Shown: one piece after another, positions 1,508 to 45,967 of the stretch
How positions within the stretch are numbered: position 1 is the stretch's first letter
Layout: every line of letters starts with the position of its first letter
Source of the DNA: a virus
Lineage: Duplodnaviria > Heunggongvirae > Uroviricota > Caudoviricetes
DNA: 46,655 nt
Virus record (IMG/VR): IMGVR_UViG_2721755711_000007
Direction: 5' to 3' (one strand)
Position numbers and translations under genes: made by a program
The notes under the pieces: model-generated
What the model saw: only the letters and a program-made list of their open reading frames with translations
Databases searched by the model: none
Told to the model about the DNA's origin: nothing

Positions 1508-2399
1508 TCAGGCTGCCAGATCATCGTTTCCGATGGAAGCATAATAAGCTTTTTCTGCTTCTGCCGGTGGGATATGGCCCAGCCTTTCCAGCAATCGTCG
1601 ATTGTTATACCAGTCCACCCACGTGAGTGTGGACAGCTCCACTTCTGTCCGGTTTTTCCAGCGCTTACGGTGTATTACCTCCGCTTTGTAAAGGCCATTG
1701 ATGCTTCTCCGCCATCGCGTTGTCATACGAGTCACCAGTACTCCCTGTTGATGCCAGTAAGCCGGCTTCCTTAAGCCGCTGCGTGTAGGCCAGCGATACA
1801 TACTGAGAACCTTTATCACTGTGGTGGATTGTGCCGGACGGCCGACGGGCCCACAACGCCTGCTCCAGTGCATCCAGCACGAATGCCGTTTCCATGGATG
1901 ATGAGACCCGCCATCCCACGATGTATCCGGCGAACACATCAATGATGAACGCCACATAAACGAAGCCCTGCCATGTGTTTACCCAGGTAAAATCAGCCAC
2001 CCACAACTGGTCAGGACGTTCTGCCACGAACTGACGGTTTACGCGGTCGCATGCGGCAACGGCTTTCCGGCTGACGGTAGTGCGGACCTTTTTACCCCGG
2101 AGAACACCGGCAAGTCCCATAACCGCCATGAGACGTGCCACAGTGCATCTGGCCACTCTGATACCTTCCCGTAACAACTGACGCCAGACTTTACGCACAC
2201 CGTATACCTGGTGATTTTCATCGTATACGCGCTGTATCTCTTTCTTCAGCCAGTCATCGCGCTGCGCACGGGCACTGCGTTTATCAGGATGATGTCGCTG
2301 TTGCTGACAGTGGTAATACGTTGACGGGGCAATATGCAGTTCGCTGCATACCGGTCCGACCCCGTACTGCTCACGCAGCTTATCCAGCAGTGGCATCAT
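1508..2399 (-). pseudogene. IS3-family transposase OrfB (DDE), split by an apparent +1 frameshift near 1704-1710
   Basis: N-terminal 244 codons in one frame (1665..2399) end YDNAMAEKHQ...; conserved C-terminus INGLYKAEVIHRKRW...WVDWYNNRRLLERLGHIPPAEAE continues in another frame (1508..1957). Confidence 0.6.
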
Positions 2400-2722
2400 T
2401 TTTTCCAGAGGCGGTCGAACTCCGCCTTCGCAAAATAAGCGGAAGCCTGGCGAAGGATATCGTTACTGCGGCGCAGTTCACGATTTTCACGTTCCAGCTC
2501 TTTCAGACGCTGACGTTCAGCGGTGGTGAGCCCACCATCACCGCCCCCGGTATCCCGCTCATGCTGGCGAACCCAGACACGCAGAGTCTCCGGCGTACAG
2601 CCAATTTTTGGGGCAATGGAACAAATTGCCGCCCACTGTGAATCATACTCATCCTGACTTTCCAGAACCATACGAATCGCTCGCTGACGGACTTCGGGGG
2701 AAAAACGAGTATTTTTAGTCAT
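2396..2722 (-). CDS. IS3-family transposase OrfA (HTH), 108 aa
   Basis: [24 protein letters not shown]... with leucine-zipper-like C-terminus; -1 frame partner orfB downstream. Confidence 0.8.
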
Positions 2723-4635: not shown

Positions 4636-5417
4636 GCTGCCACCTTCTGCTCAGTGGCTTTCTGTTTCAGGAATCCAAGAGCTTTCACTGCTTCGGCCTG
4701 TGTCAGTTCTGACGATGCGTGAATGTCGCGGCGAAATATCTGGGAACAGAGCGGCAATAAGTCGTCATCCCATGTTTTATCCAGGGCGATCAGCAGAGTG
4801 TTAATCTCCTGCATGGTTTCATCGTTAACCGGAGTGATGTCGCGTTCTGGCTGACGTTCTGCAGTGTATGCAGTATTTTCGACAATGCGCTCGGCTTCAT
4901 CCTTGTCATAGATACCAGCAAATCCGAAGGCCAGACGGGCACACTGAATCATGGCTTTATGCCGTAACATCCGTTTGGGATGCGACTGCCACGGCCCCGT
5001 GATTTCTCTGCCTTCGCGGGTTTTGAATGGTTCGCGGCGGCATTCATCCATCCATTCGGTAACGCAGATCGGATGATTACGGTCCTTGCGGTAAATCCGG
5101 CATGTACAGGATTCATTGTCCTGCTCAAAGTCCATGCCATCAAACTGCTGGTTTTCATTGATGATGCGGGACCAGCCATCAACGCCCACCACCGGAACAA
5201 TGCCGTTCTGCTTATCAGGGAAGGCGTAAATTTCTTTCGTCCACGGATTAAGGCCGTACTGGTTGGCGACGATCAGCAATGCGATGAACTGCGCATCGCT
5301 GGCATCACCTTTAAATGCCGTCTGGCGAAGAGTGGTGATCAGTTCCTGTGGGTCGACAGAATCCATGCCGACACGTTCAGCCAGCTTCCCTGCCAGCGTT
5401 GCGAGTGCTGTACTCAT
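4632..5417 (-). CDS. bet: Recombination protein Bet (Red beta), 261 aa
   Basis: Translation matches lambda Bet ([44 protein letters not shown]...). Confidence 0.95.
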
Positions 5418-5422
5418 CCGTT

Positions 5423-5719
5423 TTATACCTCTGAATCAATATCAACCTGGTGGTGAGCAATGGTTTCAACCATGTACTGGATGTGTTCTGCCATGCGCTC
5501 CTGAAACTCAACATCGTCATCAAACGCACGGGTAATGGCTTTTTTGCTGGCCCCGTGGCGTTGCAAATGATCGATGCATAGCGATTCAAACAGGTGCTGG
5601 GGCAGGCCTTTTTCCATGTCGTCTGCCAGTTCTGCCTCTTTCTCTTCACGGGCGATCTGCTGGTAGTGACGCGCCCAGCTCTGAGCCTCAAGACGATCCT
5701 GAATGTAATAAGCGTTCAT
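5423..5719 (-). CDS. gam: Gam, RecBCD inhibitor (98-aa form)
   Basis: Translation matches lambda Gam short form ([21 protein letters not shown]...[10 protein letters not shown]). Confidence 0.9.
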
Positions 5720-5794
5720 GGCTGACCTCCTGAAAATGGCTGTGAAAATATCGCCCGCGAAATGCCAGGCTGATTAGGAAAACAGGAAAGGGGA

Positions 5795-6085
5795 TTAGTG
5801 ATTCAGGCCGTTACCGCGTCCGTCGAGAAAAACTTCCACGAGCAAATCACGGGTATAAGTGCGCTCGATGCCGCGATGCAGATAAAGCCGTCCGCGTAAA
5901 TTAGCTGATGCAGTCCAGGTACCATCTTTGTGTTTGACCAGCATTCCTGGCATGACCGCACCTCGATTAACGGTCTGCGTTCCATAATGTTGATGAACCA
6001 TAAAAACTCCTGCCCGTAAGCTGGGCTGCTGAACATATAGAGACTTCTGCGCGTATTCAGGCGGTGGATGGCCGCCGGTTGTCAT
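5795..6085 (-). CDS. Hypothetical protein, 96 aa; first gene downstream of putative pL
   Basis: ORF with GAGG ribosome-binding site about 11 nt upstream; no recognisable N-like arginine-rich motif. Confidence 0.5.
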
Positions 6086-6253
6086 AACTAAGCCGCCTCG
6101 TTGAAGCGACTAAGGTATGAAATGTTGAGTTAATTTCAGCTGGTCACACCGACGTTCACGCGTCCGTTTCACCCCTCGCACTCCCCGAAGCCTGCTGAAA
6201 TTCAAACTGCGGATCTAAGCGGTCATCGCAACGGTGAATCAGGTAGTTGCCGT

Positions 6254-6350
6254 ATCGTTGTGTTGTTGCGATGAACTTATTTAAAACTATAGTTGTTTTA
6301 TCGTCAACAACAAAAGTTGTTTTATTGGTTGTTTTAGATATAACTGGTTG
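6254..6350 (-). promoter_or_regulatory. Putative OL/pL operator-promoter region
   Basis: Repeated GGTTGTT / AACAACC half-site motifs shared with the cI-cro intergenic region, including the palindrome ACAACAAAAGTTGT. Confidence 0.4.
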
Positions 6351-6448
6351 TATTTAGGATGGATTTATTTTGTGACTTGAATCGCATAGCGATAACTGAA
6401 GCGAGGTTATGGTGGTTTTTTTAACGGTGTGTGTGATGAGGGGAGGGC

Positions 6449-6480
6449 AAAAGAAAACCCGGCACGGTGACCGGGATTCT
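6449..6480 (-). terminator. Putative rho-independent terminator downstream of the repressor gene
   Basis: CCCGG-loop-CCGGG hairpin followed on the minus strand by TTTTCTTTTG. Confidence 0.35.
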
Positions 6481-6596
6481 TACGCCGTTAGGTAAAGATA
6501 TTATTGCGGTGGCTTAATATTACTACCTAGAGCAAAGATAGGAATTAGTTCTTTACTGAATGAGCACAATGCCCAGTTGATAATTTTTAATTGGTA

Positions 6597-7286
6597 CTAC
6601 CCATGCTTCCTATATGTCTGCGGCATGCTCCCAATAACCTTACCGAAGATGAACACCCGGTTCATCTCGTCTTTCTCGATCGGGTCCCACGGTGAGTAGC
6701 TTTTGTTATCAGAGATGACCAGCAGCTTATCCTTCATCATTTGCAGGCGCTTTACATGGGCTGTGTCGTCGTACAGAAACGCATAGATACCATCACCGTC
6801 GAAAGATTTAACTGTGATATCAACGAACAGCAGATCACCTGGTTCGATCGTTCCTGACATGCTGTCACCACGCACGTTAATGATGCGGATATTTTCCGCC
6901 TTCCTACCATCGAACATGTGACGAGCATCGTCAAACGAGTACTCAACCGAGCGTAGAACTTCTACAAACTCACGGTTGATGACTCCCGGCCCAGCACTGA
7001 CTTCTATATCAAGAACGTCAATCTTGAAGTATTTGGAATGGCTGACAGTTGATTGTATTGGTTGCACTGTACTGTCTGACATATTTCCAACGCCAGAAGA
7101 TAACCATTCTGCGCGCACACCCAAAGCGTTCGCGATCTCCACGATTTTAGTTGTTTGATTAGCTTTCCCTGTTTCGATTTTCTGAATAGCAGCCTGGCTA
7201 ACCCCGACCAAATCCCCAAGCGCCTTTTGTGTAAGGCCTCGCGCTAATCTGGCTTCTTTAAGTCTTTCTGAGAGTGTTGTTTTCAT
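6597..7286 (-). CDS. cI-like prophage repressor (XRE-type HTH plus S24 LexA-like peptidase domain)
   Basis: N-terminal HTH (LTQKALGDLVGVSQAAIQKIETGK) and C-terminal autocleavage domain with GDSM and K; start taken at MKTTLSERLKEA (ATG 7284-7286). Confidence 0.85.
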   Translation of the reverse strand: MKTTLSERLKEARLARGLTQKALGDLVGVSQAAIQKIETGKANQTTKIVEIANALGVRAEWLSSGVGNMSDSTVQPIQSTVSHSKYFKIDVLDIEVSAGPGVINREFVEVLRSVEYSFDDARHMFDGRKAENIRIINVRGDSMSGTIEPGDLLFVDITVKSFDGDGIYAFLYDDTAHVKRLQMMKDKLLVISDNKSYSPWDPIEKDEMNRVFIFGKVIGSMPQTYRKHG

Positions 7287-7390
7287 AGTCCAAATGTACA
7301 ACCAAGGTTTTATTCCATCAAACGAAAATGGTTGTTGACTAAAAACAACCATAGTTTTAATCTTGATTCAAATTAACCACGGAGGTTGTT
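7287..7390. promoter_or_regulatory. OR region: divergent pRM (minus; -35 TTGATG 7316-7321, -10 TACATT 7293-7298) and pR (plus; -35 TTGACT 7335-7340, -10 TAATCT 7358-7363) with 25-bp operator palindrome ATGGTTGTTgactaaaAACAACCAT (7328-7352)
   Basis: Hexamers and 17-bp spacers read directly; pRM -10 lies 6 nt from the cI ATG, implying a leaderless cI mRNA as in lambda. Confidence 0.55.
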
Positions 7391-7621
7391 ATGAACCCAG
7401 CTATCAAAACAGCGATCAATATCGTTGGTTCACAAAAGAAACTGGGCGCTGCTTGCGAAGTTTCACAGCAGGCCGTCTATAAGTGGCTTCACAACAAAGC
7501 AAAGGTATCCCCTGAACATGTCGGCAGCATTGTTACGGCTACTGGTGGAGTAGTGAAGGCATACCAGATTCGCCCGGATCTTCCGAAGTTGTTTCCACAC
7601 ACCGAAAAGAACGCAGCTTAA
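7391..7621 (+). CDS. Cro-like HTH regulator (YdaS-like), 76 aa
   Basis: Small HTH ORF divergent from repressor gene, GGAGG ribosome-binding site at 7381-7385. Confidence 0.8.
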   Translation: MNPAIKTAINIVGSQKKLGAACEVSQQAVYKWLHNKAKVSPEHVGSIVTATGGVVKAYQIRPDLPKLFPHTEKNAA

Positions 7622-7633
7622 ATTTCCATTTCA

Positions 7634-7646
7634 CGCTCTTTAACAA
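7634..7646 (+). promoter_or_regulatory. boxA-like element (CGCTCTTTAACAA) in nutR position
   Basis: Matches boxA consensus CGCTCTT(T)A and the rrn boxA TGCTCTTTAACAA; 13 nt after cro stop; no obvious boxB hairpin follows. Confidence 0.45.
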
Positions 7647-7690
7647 TAAGCAATCAACTTAACAGTCAATTCAAACTAAAGGAGTCAATT

Positions 7691-8230
7691 ATGCAACCAC
7701 TTACATACCAACAGACTAGCGGATTTAGCCCGACTGCGGTGATAAATCGTTCTCAAACAAAACAGGTGCCAGGCCACGAAAAAATCCGTGATGCCGTCCG
7801 CGCCTGGTCGGCTGTAGATAATCAGGATGTCGTTGCCACACTCATTGTGAATGAGTATCGGGAGCAGGGCGGCGGCACCATCGATTTCCCTGATGATGTC
7901 AGCCGTGCACGCCAGAAGCTGTTCCGCTTCCTCGATAACAAATTCGATTCTGAAAAATACCGAAATAACGTGCGTGAACTGACCCCGGCAATTCTGGCGG
8001 TACTACCGCTGGAATATCGCGGTTACCTGGTTGAGCAGGATAGCTTCATGGCTAGGTTGGCTGAAATGGAAAAGGAACTCAGTGAGGCAAAACAGGCTGT
8101 CATTCTCAACGCACCACGCCACCAGAAACTGAAGGAAATTAGTGAAGGTATTGTGTCGATGTTTCGTGTGGACCCAGATCTGGCTGGTCCATTGATGGCG
8201 ATGGTTACTACCATGCTGGGGGCGATATGA
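7691..8230 (+). CDS. YdaT/CII-like regulatory protein, 179 aa
   Basis: Occupies cII position; similar in motif pattern to Rac YdaT as I recall it; AAGGAG ribosome-binding site. Confidence 0.6.
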   Translation: MQPLTYQQTSGFSPTAVINRSQTKQVPGHEKIRDAVRAWSAVDNQDVVATLIVNEYREQGGGTIDFPDDVSRARQKLFRFLDNKFDSEKYRNNVRELTPAILAVLPLEYRGYLVEQDSFMARLAEMEKELSEAKQAVILNAPRHQKLKEISEGIVSMFRVDPDLAGPLMAMVTTMLGAI

Positions 8231-8316
8231 CAGGTTCAGAAATGGCGAAAGCCGGTCTGCTGGAACAGAACCGACTTTCAGGTGCAAATCGTAACACACT
8301 CATTGCGGGAGGAATT

Positions 8317-14247: not shown

Positions 14248-14311
14248 AAGTGTTTTAAGAAGGAGCAATTCTATCGATTTTGATTTTGGGAAATCAACAC
14301 GGCATAATTAT

Positions 14312-20051: not shown

Positions 20052-20246
20052 TCATCCATCATCACTTTGGATTGATGTATATGCTCTCTTTTCTGACGTT
20101 AGTCTCCGACGGCAGGCTTCAATGACCCAGGCTGAGAAATTCCCAGACCCTTTTTGCTCAAGAGCGATGTTAATTTGTTCAATCATTTGGTTAGGAAAGC
20201 GGATGTTGCGGGTTGTTGTTCTGCGGGTTCTGTTCTTCGTTGACAT
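20052..20246 (-). CDS. Hypothetical small basic protein, 64 aa
   Basis: ORF between bor and cos; Arg-rich N- and C-termini. Confidence 0.4.
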   Translation of the reverse strand: MSTKNRTRRTTTRNIRFPNQMIEQINIALEQKGSGNFSAWVIEACRRRLTSEKRAYTSIQSDDG

Positions 20247-35964: not shown

Positions 35965-39910
<3,946 letters not shown>

Positions 39911-45391: not shown

Positions 45392-45967
45392 ATGGATTTC
45401 AGAATGAGTGAACAACCACGGACCATAACAATTTATAATCTGCTGGCCGGAACTAATGAATTTATTGGTGAAGGTGACGCATACATTCCGCCTCATACAG
45501 GTCTGCCAGCAAACAGTACCGATATTGCACCGCCAGATATTCCGGCTGGTTTCGTGGCTGTTTTCAACAGTGATGAGTCATCGTGGCATCTCGTTGAAGA
45601 TCATCGGGGTAAAACGGTTTATGACGTGGCTTCCGGCGACGCGTTATTTATTTCTGAACTCGGCTCATTACCGGAAAATGTCACCTGGTTATCCCCGGAA
45701 GGGGAGTTTCAGAAGTGGAACGGCACAGCCTGGGTGAAGGATACGGAAGCAGAAAAACTGTTCCGGATCCGGGAGGCGGAAGAAACAAAAAACAGCCTGA
45801 TGCAGGTAGCCAGTGAGCATATAGCGCCGCTTCAGGATGCTGTGGATCTGGAGATCGCAACGGAGAAAGAAACCTTGTTGCTGGAAGCCTGGAAAAAGTA
45901 TCGGGTGTTGCTGAACCGTGTTGATACATCAACTGCACCGGATATTGAATGGCCAGCCCTACCGTAG
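45392..45967 (+). CDS. tfa: Tail fibre assembly protein Tfa, 191 aa
   Basis: [54 protein letters not shown]... matches lambda Tfa; GAGG ribosome-binding site 6 nt upstream. Confidence 0.9.

Follow-up and report, generated by a model that had tools for sequence, protein, structure and literature searches.

Does a perfect boxA directly behind cro still have a function in a lambdoid phage that carries no N gene, or is it the leftover of a phage that had one? The question is raised by positions 6,086 to 7,690 of a viral DNA of 46,655 nucleotides (Caudoviricetes; IMG/VR record IMGVR_UViG_2721755711_000007), the whole of which is here called the window. The segment holds an immunity module with a repressor gene, cI, and a divergent cro, and an earlier note made from the sequence alone had proposed that its boxA could provide N-independent, host-factor-based antitermination of the rightward operon. 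Here, we find the phage to be an intact lambdoid relative of the DLP12 prophage and the region to be an ordinary switch with a single small loose end, the boxA. We regard it as probable, with considerable room for doubt, that this switch combines a CP-933P/Rac-type build with a 434-like specificity, lacks N, and retains in boxA one half of an ancestral nutR.

An orphan boxA behind cro

The sequence CGCTCTTTAACAA lies on the plus strand at 7634–7646, 12 nt after the cro stop. It had been noted as close to the rrn boxA, and the match is exact over all 13 positions, its core GCTCTTTAACA (7635–7645) agreeing at 11 of 11 with GYTCTTTAANA, the consensus derived from functional BoxA elements (PMC5725501). 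No other exact copy occurs in the window, the chance expectation being about 0.0013; no second boxA to the consensus was found on either strand, the only other match with at most two mismatches lying among the packaging genes (20154–20166). The site is unstructured (minimum free energy of 7600–7700, −5.6 kcal/mol; z = +0.58 against shuffles), and folding of 7600–7700 gave no hairpin after boxA, in agreement with the earlier remark that no boxB could be recognised. The gene 3' of boxA, a point absent from the earlier note, encodes a YdaT-type CII analogue.

A scan of genome contigs with Cro yielded 11 loci with the same Cro type (63–86% identity; L129–L139), from Kosakonia, Klebsiella (two species), Enterobacter, Serratia, Erwinia, Xenorhabdus, Buttiauxella, Photorhabdus, Pantoea and Arsenophonus. 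Five of these relatives (L133, L134, L136, L137 and L139) have, 6–24 nt past the cro stop, a consensus boxA and then a boxB-like hairpin, exemplified in L139 by CGCTCTTTAACAA-CCTGGCC-TCCCTGAAATTGGGA, and a nutL across cI, for example CGCTCTTTAACACCCTTTCGCTGAAAAAGCGA. Like these five, and like the nutR of lambda, P22 and phage 21, the window has a consensus boxA on the pR transcript just past the cro stop; it differs from them all in lacking the boxB hairpin, nutL and N. The presence of N was confirmed by PF25694 and phrog_271 in four of the five, while in L133 its gene would lie past the end of the locus; L133 and L136 run on, as judged by eye, into a lambda-type cII. In one further relative (L132) nutL has a boxA and the boxA after cro is degenerate, N not being detected, and an IMG/VR locus with a cro 72% identical (L060) combines boxA, hairpin and a match to an N-like hidden Markov model (HMM). 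The relatives without nutL or N (L129, L130, L131, L135 and L138) have no boxA after cro in any of the five.

Among 65 IMG/VR loci with ydaT, boxA was found only in the immunity type of the window (13 loci) and in L013 and L026. The nearest named phages, 4A7 and Perceval, both classed in Bievrevirus, have the ydaT-O-P backbone of the window, and they and about 20 IMG/VR loci combine the same ydaT and pL leader with another immunity cassette; boxA is absent from them all; 4A7 and Perceval are isolated phages, and the viability of such sister phages means that the backbone does not need boxA. A short-query BLAST of the cro–ydaT spacer against phages returned the same immunity type and chance matches only.

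The mosaic junction that had been suspected at this locus was located by comparison with 4A7, with joints at 7153 and 7690. The alignment falls into three blocks: 5300–6555, with the exo side, kil, the pL leader and the terminator block of the cI operon (93% identity, the OL operator stretch at about 6270–6355 being locally different); 6552–7153, the C-domain of cI (90%); and 7690 onward, with ydaT, O and P (97%). The immunity-specific block runs from inside cI to the base before the ydaT ATG (7691), and comprises, besides the cI N-domain, OR, cro and boxA, a spacer of 44 nt. Where E. coli genomes carry other immunity types, homology begins at 7688–7690. Overall, the window shares the pL leader, kil, gam, bet, exo, ydaT, O and P with 4A7, Perceval and DLP12 (93–97% identity with 4A7), and its nin region, emrE-ybcK-ybcL and onward, is that of DLP12, whereas 4A7 and Perceval differ in the cI N-domain, the operators and cro, besides the missing boxA.

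Since boxA after cro goes with nutL, N or both in the relatives, and is lacking in N-less relatives and sister phages alike, it looks like a leftover of nutR. The sequence common to the window and the nutR of its relatives ends right after CGCTCTTTAACAAT, which fits a joint at or just past boxA. The simplest reading would make boxA a nutR remnant at a mosaic joint. A cassette of cI N-domain, OR, cro and boxA would have descended from N-dependent phages, and recombination would have joined it to an N-less YdaT backbone, with the loss of boxB on the right and of nutL and N on the left; this order of events is one that we infer. The orphan boxA would then be a clean natural case of the half-sites left by mosaic exchange at conserved regulatory sequences.

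Several observations weigh against such a relic. It should decay, yet boxA matches at 13 of 13 positions, and the sole change seen in it, from C to T at the Y position in two of three variant E. coli loci that were compared, keeps the consensus; the divergence of the module is too low, however, for this conservation to say much either way. The resulting form, GTTCTTTAACA, appears upstream of suhB in a supplementary table (PMC5725501). In three loci that belong to another immunity type (L013, L026 and L123), ydaT is still preceded by a consensus boxA and a conserved GGCTGA-NNNN-TCAGCC hairpin, neither N nor nutL being detected there, which hints at selection for boxA without N. On the reading of boxA as a relic, early transcription would reach its targets without N because the operons are densely translated and show no strong intrinsic terminators. 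A crude consensus scan, blind to Rho-dependent sites, found none on the sense strand of either stretch, pR to Q and pL to int, and the largest untranslated gaps of the pR operon are 242 and 214 nt.

A working boxA would act as an N-independent Nus-loading site, as in rrn and CRISPR arrays, on which NusB/NusE with NusA, NusG and SuhB make the polymerase resistant to Rho over the 8.6 kb to Q. The phage would then be the first lambdoid to use a host rrn-type antitermination signal without N. The single-stranded exact match on the sense strand, just past the first pR gene, would suit this role, as would the absence of N, the consensus-keeping substitution and the boxA retained before ydaT in L013, L026 and L123. 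The boxA of the window is also closer to the consensus than that of lambda itself, and a study reportedly describes BoxA-dependent antitermination of CRISPR arrays. We nevertheless consider this explanation unlikely, and the proposal of host-factor antitermination is not supported in the form in which it was first made: boxA tracks nutL, N or both among relatives with the same Cro, none of the five N-less ones has it, sister phages on the same backbone are viable without it, and it is missing from the pL operon, whose 270-nt untranslated leader would be a more obvious target for Rho. The pR operon is moreover densely translated, and translation already shields it from Rho. As in the N-independent BoxA elements of rrn leaders and the suhB 5' untranslated region (PMC5725501), the GYTCTTTAANA core is exact and would need no phage protein; it differs from these in lying inside a translated phage operon and in comparative data that suggest an origin as a nut half-site. 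The CRISPR arrays of Salmonella are said to belong to the same class of elements.

The position of boxA relative to ydaT brings in a regulation like that of suhB, which we judge decidedly improbable. A Nus complex on boxA, 31 nt 5' of the ydaT Shine-Dalgarno sequence, would lower translation of the CII analogue and might let Rho act inside ydaT, coupling the choice between lysis and lysogeny to host Nus factors. The end of boxA is 44 nt before the ydaT ATG, inside the 50-nt window used for BoxA-regulated genes; the boxA of E. coli suhB is 29 nt from the start codon, and for E. coli S88 the supplementary table gives a prophage cII with a boxA 3 nt ahead of it (PMC5725501). This argument is one of analogy, however; in other immunity types the same ydaT is controlled with no boxA present, and the boxA of L013 is 77 nt from the start. 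Taking the two roles together, it is possible though doubtful that an N-less lambdoid has kept the boxA half as a protein-independent Nus-loading site, which would either harden pR transcription to Q against Rho or tune YdaT translation by free NusB/NusE/SuhB, and of which the sites in L013, L026 and L123 would be a second form. If so, the lysis/lysogeny decision would be linked to ribosome synthesis. Also when boxA is read as a nutR remnant, as we prefer, it may still bind NusB/NusE and could still load them, because it is a perfect, unstructured match to a functional consensus.

Some further sites of this kind were seen in the course of the comparison. The combination of boxA and hairpin, to which L013 adds about 600 nt of GC-rich non-coding DNA between pL and the first gene, with no Rfam match, was noted at 2720–2800 and 5350–5960 in L013, at about 3040–3120 in L026 and at about 7800–7890 in L123. 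The gene that comes first in the pL operon of L013 and L123, encoding 94 aa, was considered as a hidden N and rejected, having no family match, being absent from the window and not tracking boxA. Most other YdaS/YdaT immunity types (for example in L047, L061, L031, L085 and L045) have a GC hairpin across the cro stop (GCCGCCTAACCGGCGGC, GCCGCTTAACGGCGGC, GCCGCGTGATACTGCGGC), with neither boxA nor a U-run; its loop resembles the boxB loop of phage 21. An exact 18-nt match to 7626–7643, including the first 10 nt of boxA, occurs in unannotated early regions of K1E/SP6-like podophages (KY435490.1, MZ234049.1, OZ035747.1 and others).

N and the leftward leader

The absence of an N gene, as asserted in the earlier note, withstood a sensitive profile search. 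Neither Pfam nor PHROGs matched an N protein in the pL-proximal open reading frames; both libraries do detect N in the relatives. An HMM built from four N proteins of relatives and lambda N, used together with phmmer on all six frames, stop to stop, of the whole window, gave a best E-value of 5 for a segment outside the region. No nutL was found, neither GYTCTTTAANA nor GCTCTT being present in the minus strand of 6000–6300, and the relatives do carry nutL. HK022 is a lambdoid that antiterminates early transcription independently of N, through put sites just 3' of pL and of cro, but a covariance model of put RNA made from putL and putR matched HK022 only and nothing in the window or its relatives, the reach of a two-sequence model being limited. 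At the gathering threshold, Rfam found ALIL, isrC and IS009 only in the whole window, all outside the region; searching 5700–8300 at E-values up to 10 gave chance-level matches only, and among seven related loci isrB was found in HK225 only.

The leader of the predicted pL transcript (6002–6272, minus strand) is untranslated, about 270 nt long and some 93–100% identical to that of phages of another immunity type. The start deduced for it, at about 6272, adjoins the position (about 6269–6270) from which 4A7 is again homologous. The leader contains a 5' stem (CATCGCAAC/GTTGCGATG), a long-range helix (AAUUUCAGC), two hairpins and, just 5' of kil, a short upstream open reading frame (MTTGGHPPP...). 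It folds no better than shuffles (z = −0.24), and no Rfam family, boxA or put-like RNA was found in it. The two hairpins and the short frame MT[TI]GGHPPP, with its polyproline run, directly precede kil at about 6045–6118 (minus strand) in the window and about 3500–3570 in L007. They are kept in HK225, the leader of which is otherwise unrelated, and may control kil translation.

This leader also holds the one frame that could be taken for an unrecognised N-like factor. It is an arginine-rich stretch (6113–6205, ...SRLRGVRGVKRTRERRCDQ...) in frame with kil, to whose putative product boxA would serve as a piece of the nut site. It is placed as N is in lambda, its motif resembles the arginine-rich motifs of N, no stop codon separates the frame from kil in 4A7, Perceval and PhiR47_2, and 6 of its 11 variable sites fall on third codon positions. 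That excess is not significant, however, and the frame has no ATG or usable Shine-Dalgarno sequence, is broken by an amber codon in 18 of 39 leaders, including that of the window, and has no match in Pfam, PHROGs or the N HMM. There is, furthermore, no boxB anywhere and no boxA in the pL-leader transcript, and HK225 and mEp237, which share only the last ~70 nt before kil, are without the arginine-rich segment. We therefore rejected the frame as coding for want of a start signal, an intact frame, a profile match or a significant bias, and consider an N-like factor of this kind extremely improbable. The search for small open reading frames and RNA structures suggested for 6086–6600 ended with 6113–6205 read as non-coding and with no put or Rfam RNA.

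The protein between OL and gam had been described as one of 96 aa and without known function. It is instead Kil, a cell-division inhibitor of the phi80/KilR type with 68 aa, encoded by the first gene of the pL operon (5795–6001, minus strand) behind its own AGGAG-N5-ATG. The product matches phrog_294 over all 68 aa (E = 1e-37), bears the RefSeq name 'phage encoded cell division inhibitor protein', and finds by tblastn the Kil of HK225, mEp237, phi80 and Rac (KilR). No coding conservation was found in an extension upstream of the 68-aa start. The frame upstream of kil is polymorphic at 6110–6112 (minus strand), with TAG in 18 and CAG in 21 of 39 related leaders, and for this reason Kil is annotated with 68, 77, 128 or 139 aa in different records.

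Operators, promoters and the repressor transcript

The interval between cI and cro contains, in all 11 relatives, a conserved 14-bp site, ACAAC-N4-GTTGT, in which the arms are constant and the sequence of the centre is free to vary. With at most one mismatch this pattern occurs six times in the window, five of them in OL or OR, as compared with about one in mononucleotide shuffles of the whole 46.6 kb. The predicted operators are 434-type 14-bp sites in multiple copies, four at OR and two to three at OL, and they recur at the same offsets across the genera. At OR, OR3 (ACAACCAAGGTTTT, 7298–7311) would lie within pRM and OR1 (ACAACCATAGTTTT, 7345–7358) between the two hexamers of pR; in sequence, OR1 comes close to a reverse complement of OL1. 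OR2 (ACGAAAATGGTTGT, 7322–7335), placed between these two, has two mismatches, its left arm being weak and its right arm conserved. A fourth site, here called OR0 (ACCACGGAGGTTGT, 7376–7389), covers the cro Shine-Dalgarno sequence and is found at no more than one mismatch in 9 of the 11 relatives, a weaker version being visible by eye in L133 and none in L138. The spacings from centre to centre are 24, 23 and 31 bp in the order OR3-OR2-OR1-OR0.

The half-sites that the earlier note saw shared by OR and OL were recovered by motif search, which places GTTGT/ACAAC again at 6283–6351. OL1 (AAAACTATAGTTGT, 6283–6296) would lie between the −35 and −10 of pL and has the same place in 10 of 11 relatives; OL2 (ACAACAAAAGTTGT, 6307–6320), 24 bp from it, is a perfect site over the pL −35. 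An OL3 candidate, less well supported than these two, follows 31 bp from OL2 (6338–6351), its right arm TGGTTGT being conserved, as TGGTTGT(T/A)TTT in several genera, and its left arm degenerate.

The 25-bp perfect palindrome from which the operators were first proposed, ATGGTTGTT-N7-AACAACCAT (7328–7352), does exist and overlaps the pR −35 as described, but it was rejected as the operator unit. It consists of the right arm of OR2 and the left arm of OR1, flanking the −35 TTGACT (7335–7340). The distance between these two arms is 8, 9 or 10 bp in the relatives, whereas the 4-bp centre of each 14-mer is invariant in length, and the matching arms at OL are separated by 8 nt and not 7, so that the 14-bp sites are preferred.

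The promoters are predicted from sequence. In pR, a −35 TTGACT and a −10 TAATCT (7358–7363) are 17 nt apart (7335–7363, plus strand), and TAnnnT is likewise placed in the relatives. The layout of pL (6279–6307, minus strand) is the same, with TTGACG (6307–6302), a 17-nt spacer and TTAAAT (6284–6279), in a region conserved in other genera. For pRM (7293–7321, minus strand), TTGATG (7321–7316) and TACATT (7298–7293) are again 17 nt apart, and the latter is only 6 nt from the cI ATG, as the earlier note had pointed out. The minus strand reads GTTG-TAnnnT-(6 nt)-ATG in the window and all 11 relatives (12 of 12), with a −35 TTG 17 nt upstream and a hexamer before the ATG that varies freely and is never a Shine-Dalgarno sequence. 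A transcript starting at the A of the ATG would require just this TAnnnT-N6-ATG geometry, and its conservation supports a leaderless cI messenger, which would be translated without a leader. The paaR2 repressor mRNA of CP-933P provides a precedent (PMC8630535).

The 14-bp operator with ACAA...TTGT outer bases fits the repressor, since the best solved relative of the cI N-domain (residues 5–68) is the 434 repressor (1per/1r69/2or1; E = 4.5e-9). The operator consensus of 434 is ACAA-N6-TTGT. Phage 434 thus resembles the window in its cI N-domain, in its 14-bp operators and in three OR sites spaced 23–24 bp. It differs in having N and nut sites, while the window has a YdaS-type rather than a 434-type Cro and an extra operator over the cro ribosome-binding site.

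In its build the switch is closer to CP-933P (PaaR2/YdaS/YdaT) and Rac (RacR/YdaS/YdaT), which also have a repressor divergent from a YdaS-type Cro, followed by a YdaT-type CII analogue, a leaderless repressor mRNA (predicted in the window), a distant OL/pL like OR/pR, and no N. In CP-933P, the helix-turn-helix repressor PaaR2 and YdaS bind overlapping operators between pRM and pR, the distant pL has the same −35 and −10 as pR, and the ydaS–ydaT interval has a pRE-type promoter close to which YdaT binds (PMC8630535, PMC9986795). The operators of CP-933P are, however, 18-bp palindromes with the consensus GTTTAGTAA, and from this dissimilarity we take the window to represent another immunity specificity of the same design. 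CP-933P is in addition cryptic and carries paaA2-parE2 cargo behind the repressor, whereas the window phage is intact and infectious, is without such cargo, and has the consensus boxA between cro and ydaT.

Taken as a mechanism, a 434-type cI would be made from the leaderless pRM transcript, and cI, presumably with Cro, would bind the ACAAC-N4-GTTGT operators of OR, OR0 among them, and those of OL. These operators would govern the divergent pair pRM/pR and also pL, a near copy of pR. Rightward transcription from pR would cover cro, the CII analogue, O, P and ren on the way to Q, and leftward transcription from pL the 270-nt leader, kil, gam, bet and exo on the way to int.

Genes of the module and its spread

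The repressor gene (6597–7286, minus strand) encodes 229 aa from the RefSeq start at 7286, with the domains HTH_3 (PF01381, E = 5e-13) and Peptidase_S24 (PF00717, E = 1e-18). The S24 autocleavage domain at the C-terminus is common to other immunity types, and the helix-turn-helix N-domain is immunity-specific. cro (7391–7621, plus strand) encodes 76 aa of the YdaS family (PF15943, E = 4e-17; phrog_35). The CII analogue of the YdaT type, with 179 aa (7691–8230, plus strand; PF06254, E = 9e-30; phrog_163 'CII-like', E = 4e-67), marks the beginning of the backbone common to other immunity types. Pfam, RefSeq and the record of an identical phage, PhiR34_1 (PV340559.1), bear out the earlier description of a repressor with an HTH and an S24 peptidase beside its own type of cro, flanked by lambda-like exo-bet-gam and O-P.

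An intrinsic terminator of the cI transcript (CCCGGTCACCGTGCCGGG and TTTTCTTTT, 6458–6475, minus strand) is kept in 4A7, where it lies 3' of cargo genes. The stretch from the cI stop to this terminator (6476–6597) is a cargo slot, empty in the window. In relatives (L003 2278–3694, L005 2283–3711, L004 2281–3831) the slot holds genes for GevT/GevA, for a HipA-like protein, for an ASCH protein with a hypothetical one, or for a membrane protein.

The spacer between boxA and ydaT (7647–7690, plus strand) is immunity-specific and contains two AGTCAATT direct repeats (7664–7671 and 7683–7690) and the ydaT Shine-Dalgarno sequence. By analogy with CP-933P (PMC9986795), a leftward pRE-type promoter, YdaT sites or both probably lie in this spacer. 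Near cro and ydaT, the best match to the CP-933P YdaT operator TTGATT-N6-AATCAA had two mismatches (7363–7380). Length variants of the spacer (L140 2491–2615, L141, L054) include one with a 12-nt insertion, present in about 47 genomes, and one, from strain KE21, in which a 19-nt tandem duplication brings the AGTCAATT repeats to three. A perfect TTGATT-N6-AATCAA, matching the reported consensus of the CP-933P YdaT operator, lies far away in the gap between ybcM and ybcN (14280–14297), about 0.006 exact sites being expected in the whole window. Divergent promoter-like hexamers overlap it, and it could be part of a YdaT-controlled promoter that starts the nin/Q region.

The window from 5700 to 8300 is 100% identical to PhiR34_1, the coordinate in the window being that of the record plus 1295; the host on record is E. 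coli K-12 MG1655. The gene order is int, exo, bet, gam, kil, cI, cro, 'cII', O, P and ren, then emrE-ybcK-ybcL-ybcM-ybcN-ninE-ybcO-rusA-ylcG-Q, the lysis genes and lambda-like head and tail genes, with exo, bet, gam, O, P and ren so named in PV340559.1 and in RefSeq. A literature search on PhiR34_1, Bievrevirus and N-less lambdoids found nothing specific.

The immunity module represents an additional specificity within a known kind of switch, and it is already deposited and common. Matches of at least 95% identity to the sequence from OR through cro and the spacer to ydaT were found in 1,506 of the 5,426 complete E. coli genomes searched, and the 91-nt cro–ydaT junction in 1,514 of them. The module is thus found in more than a quarter of these genomes, including strains of O157:H7, O104:H4 and ST131. 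With a module so widespread, the operator code ACAAC-N4-GTTGT, the promoter layout and the joints should help in annotating prophages and predicting immunity groups.

Elsewhere in the window, the Rfam ALIL pseudoknot is found in full length inside the integrase gene (2325–2441, minus strand), with 121.5 bits against a gathering score of 50. The isrC match (38729–38851, plus strand; 150 bits) and the IS009 match (45735–45933, plus strand; 218 bits) lie near lom/stf and past the right end of the phage record.

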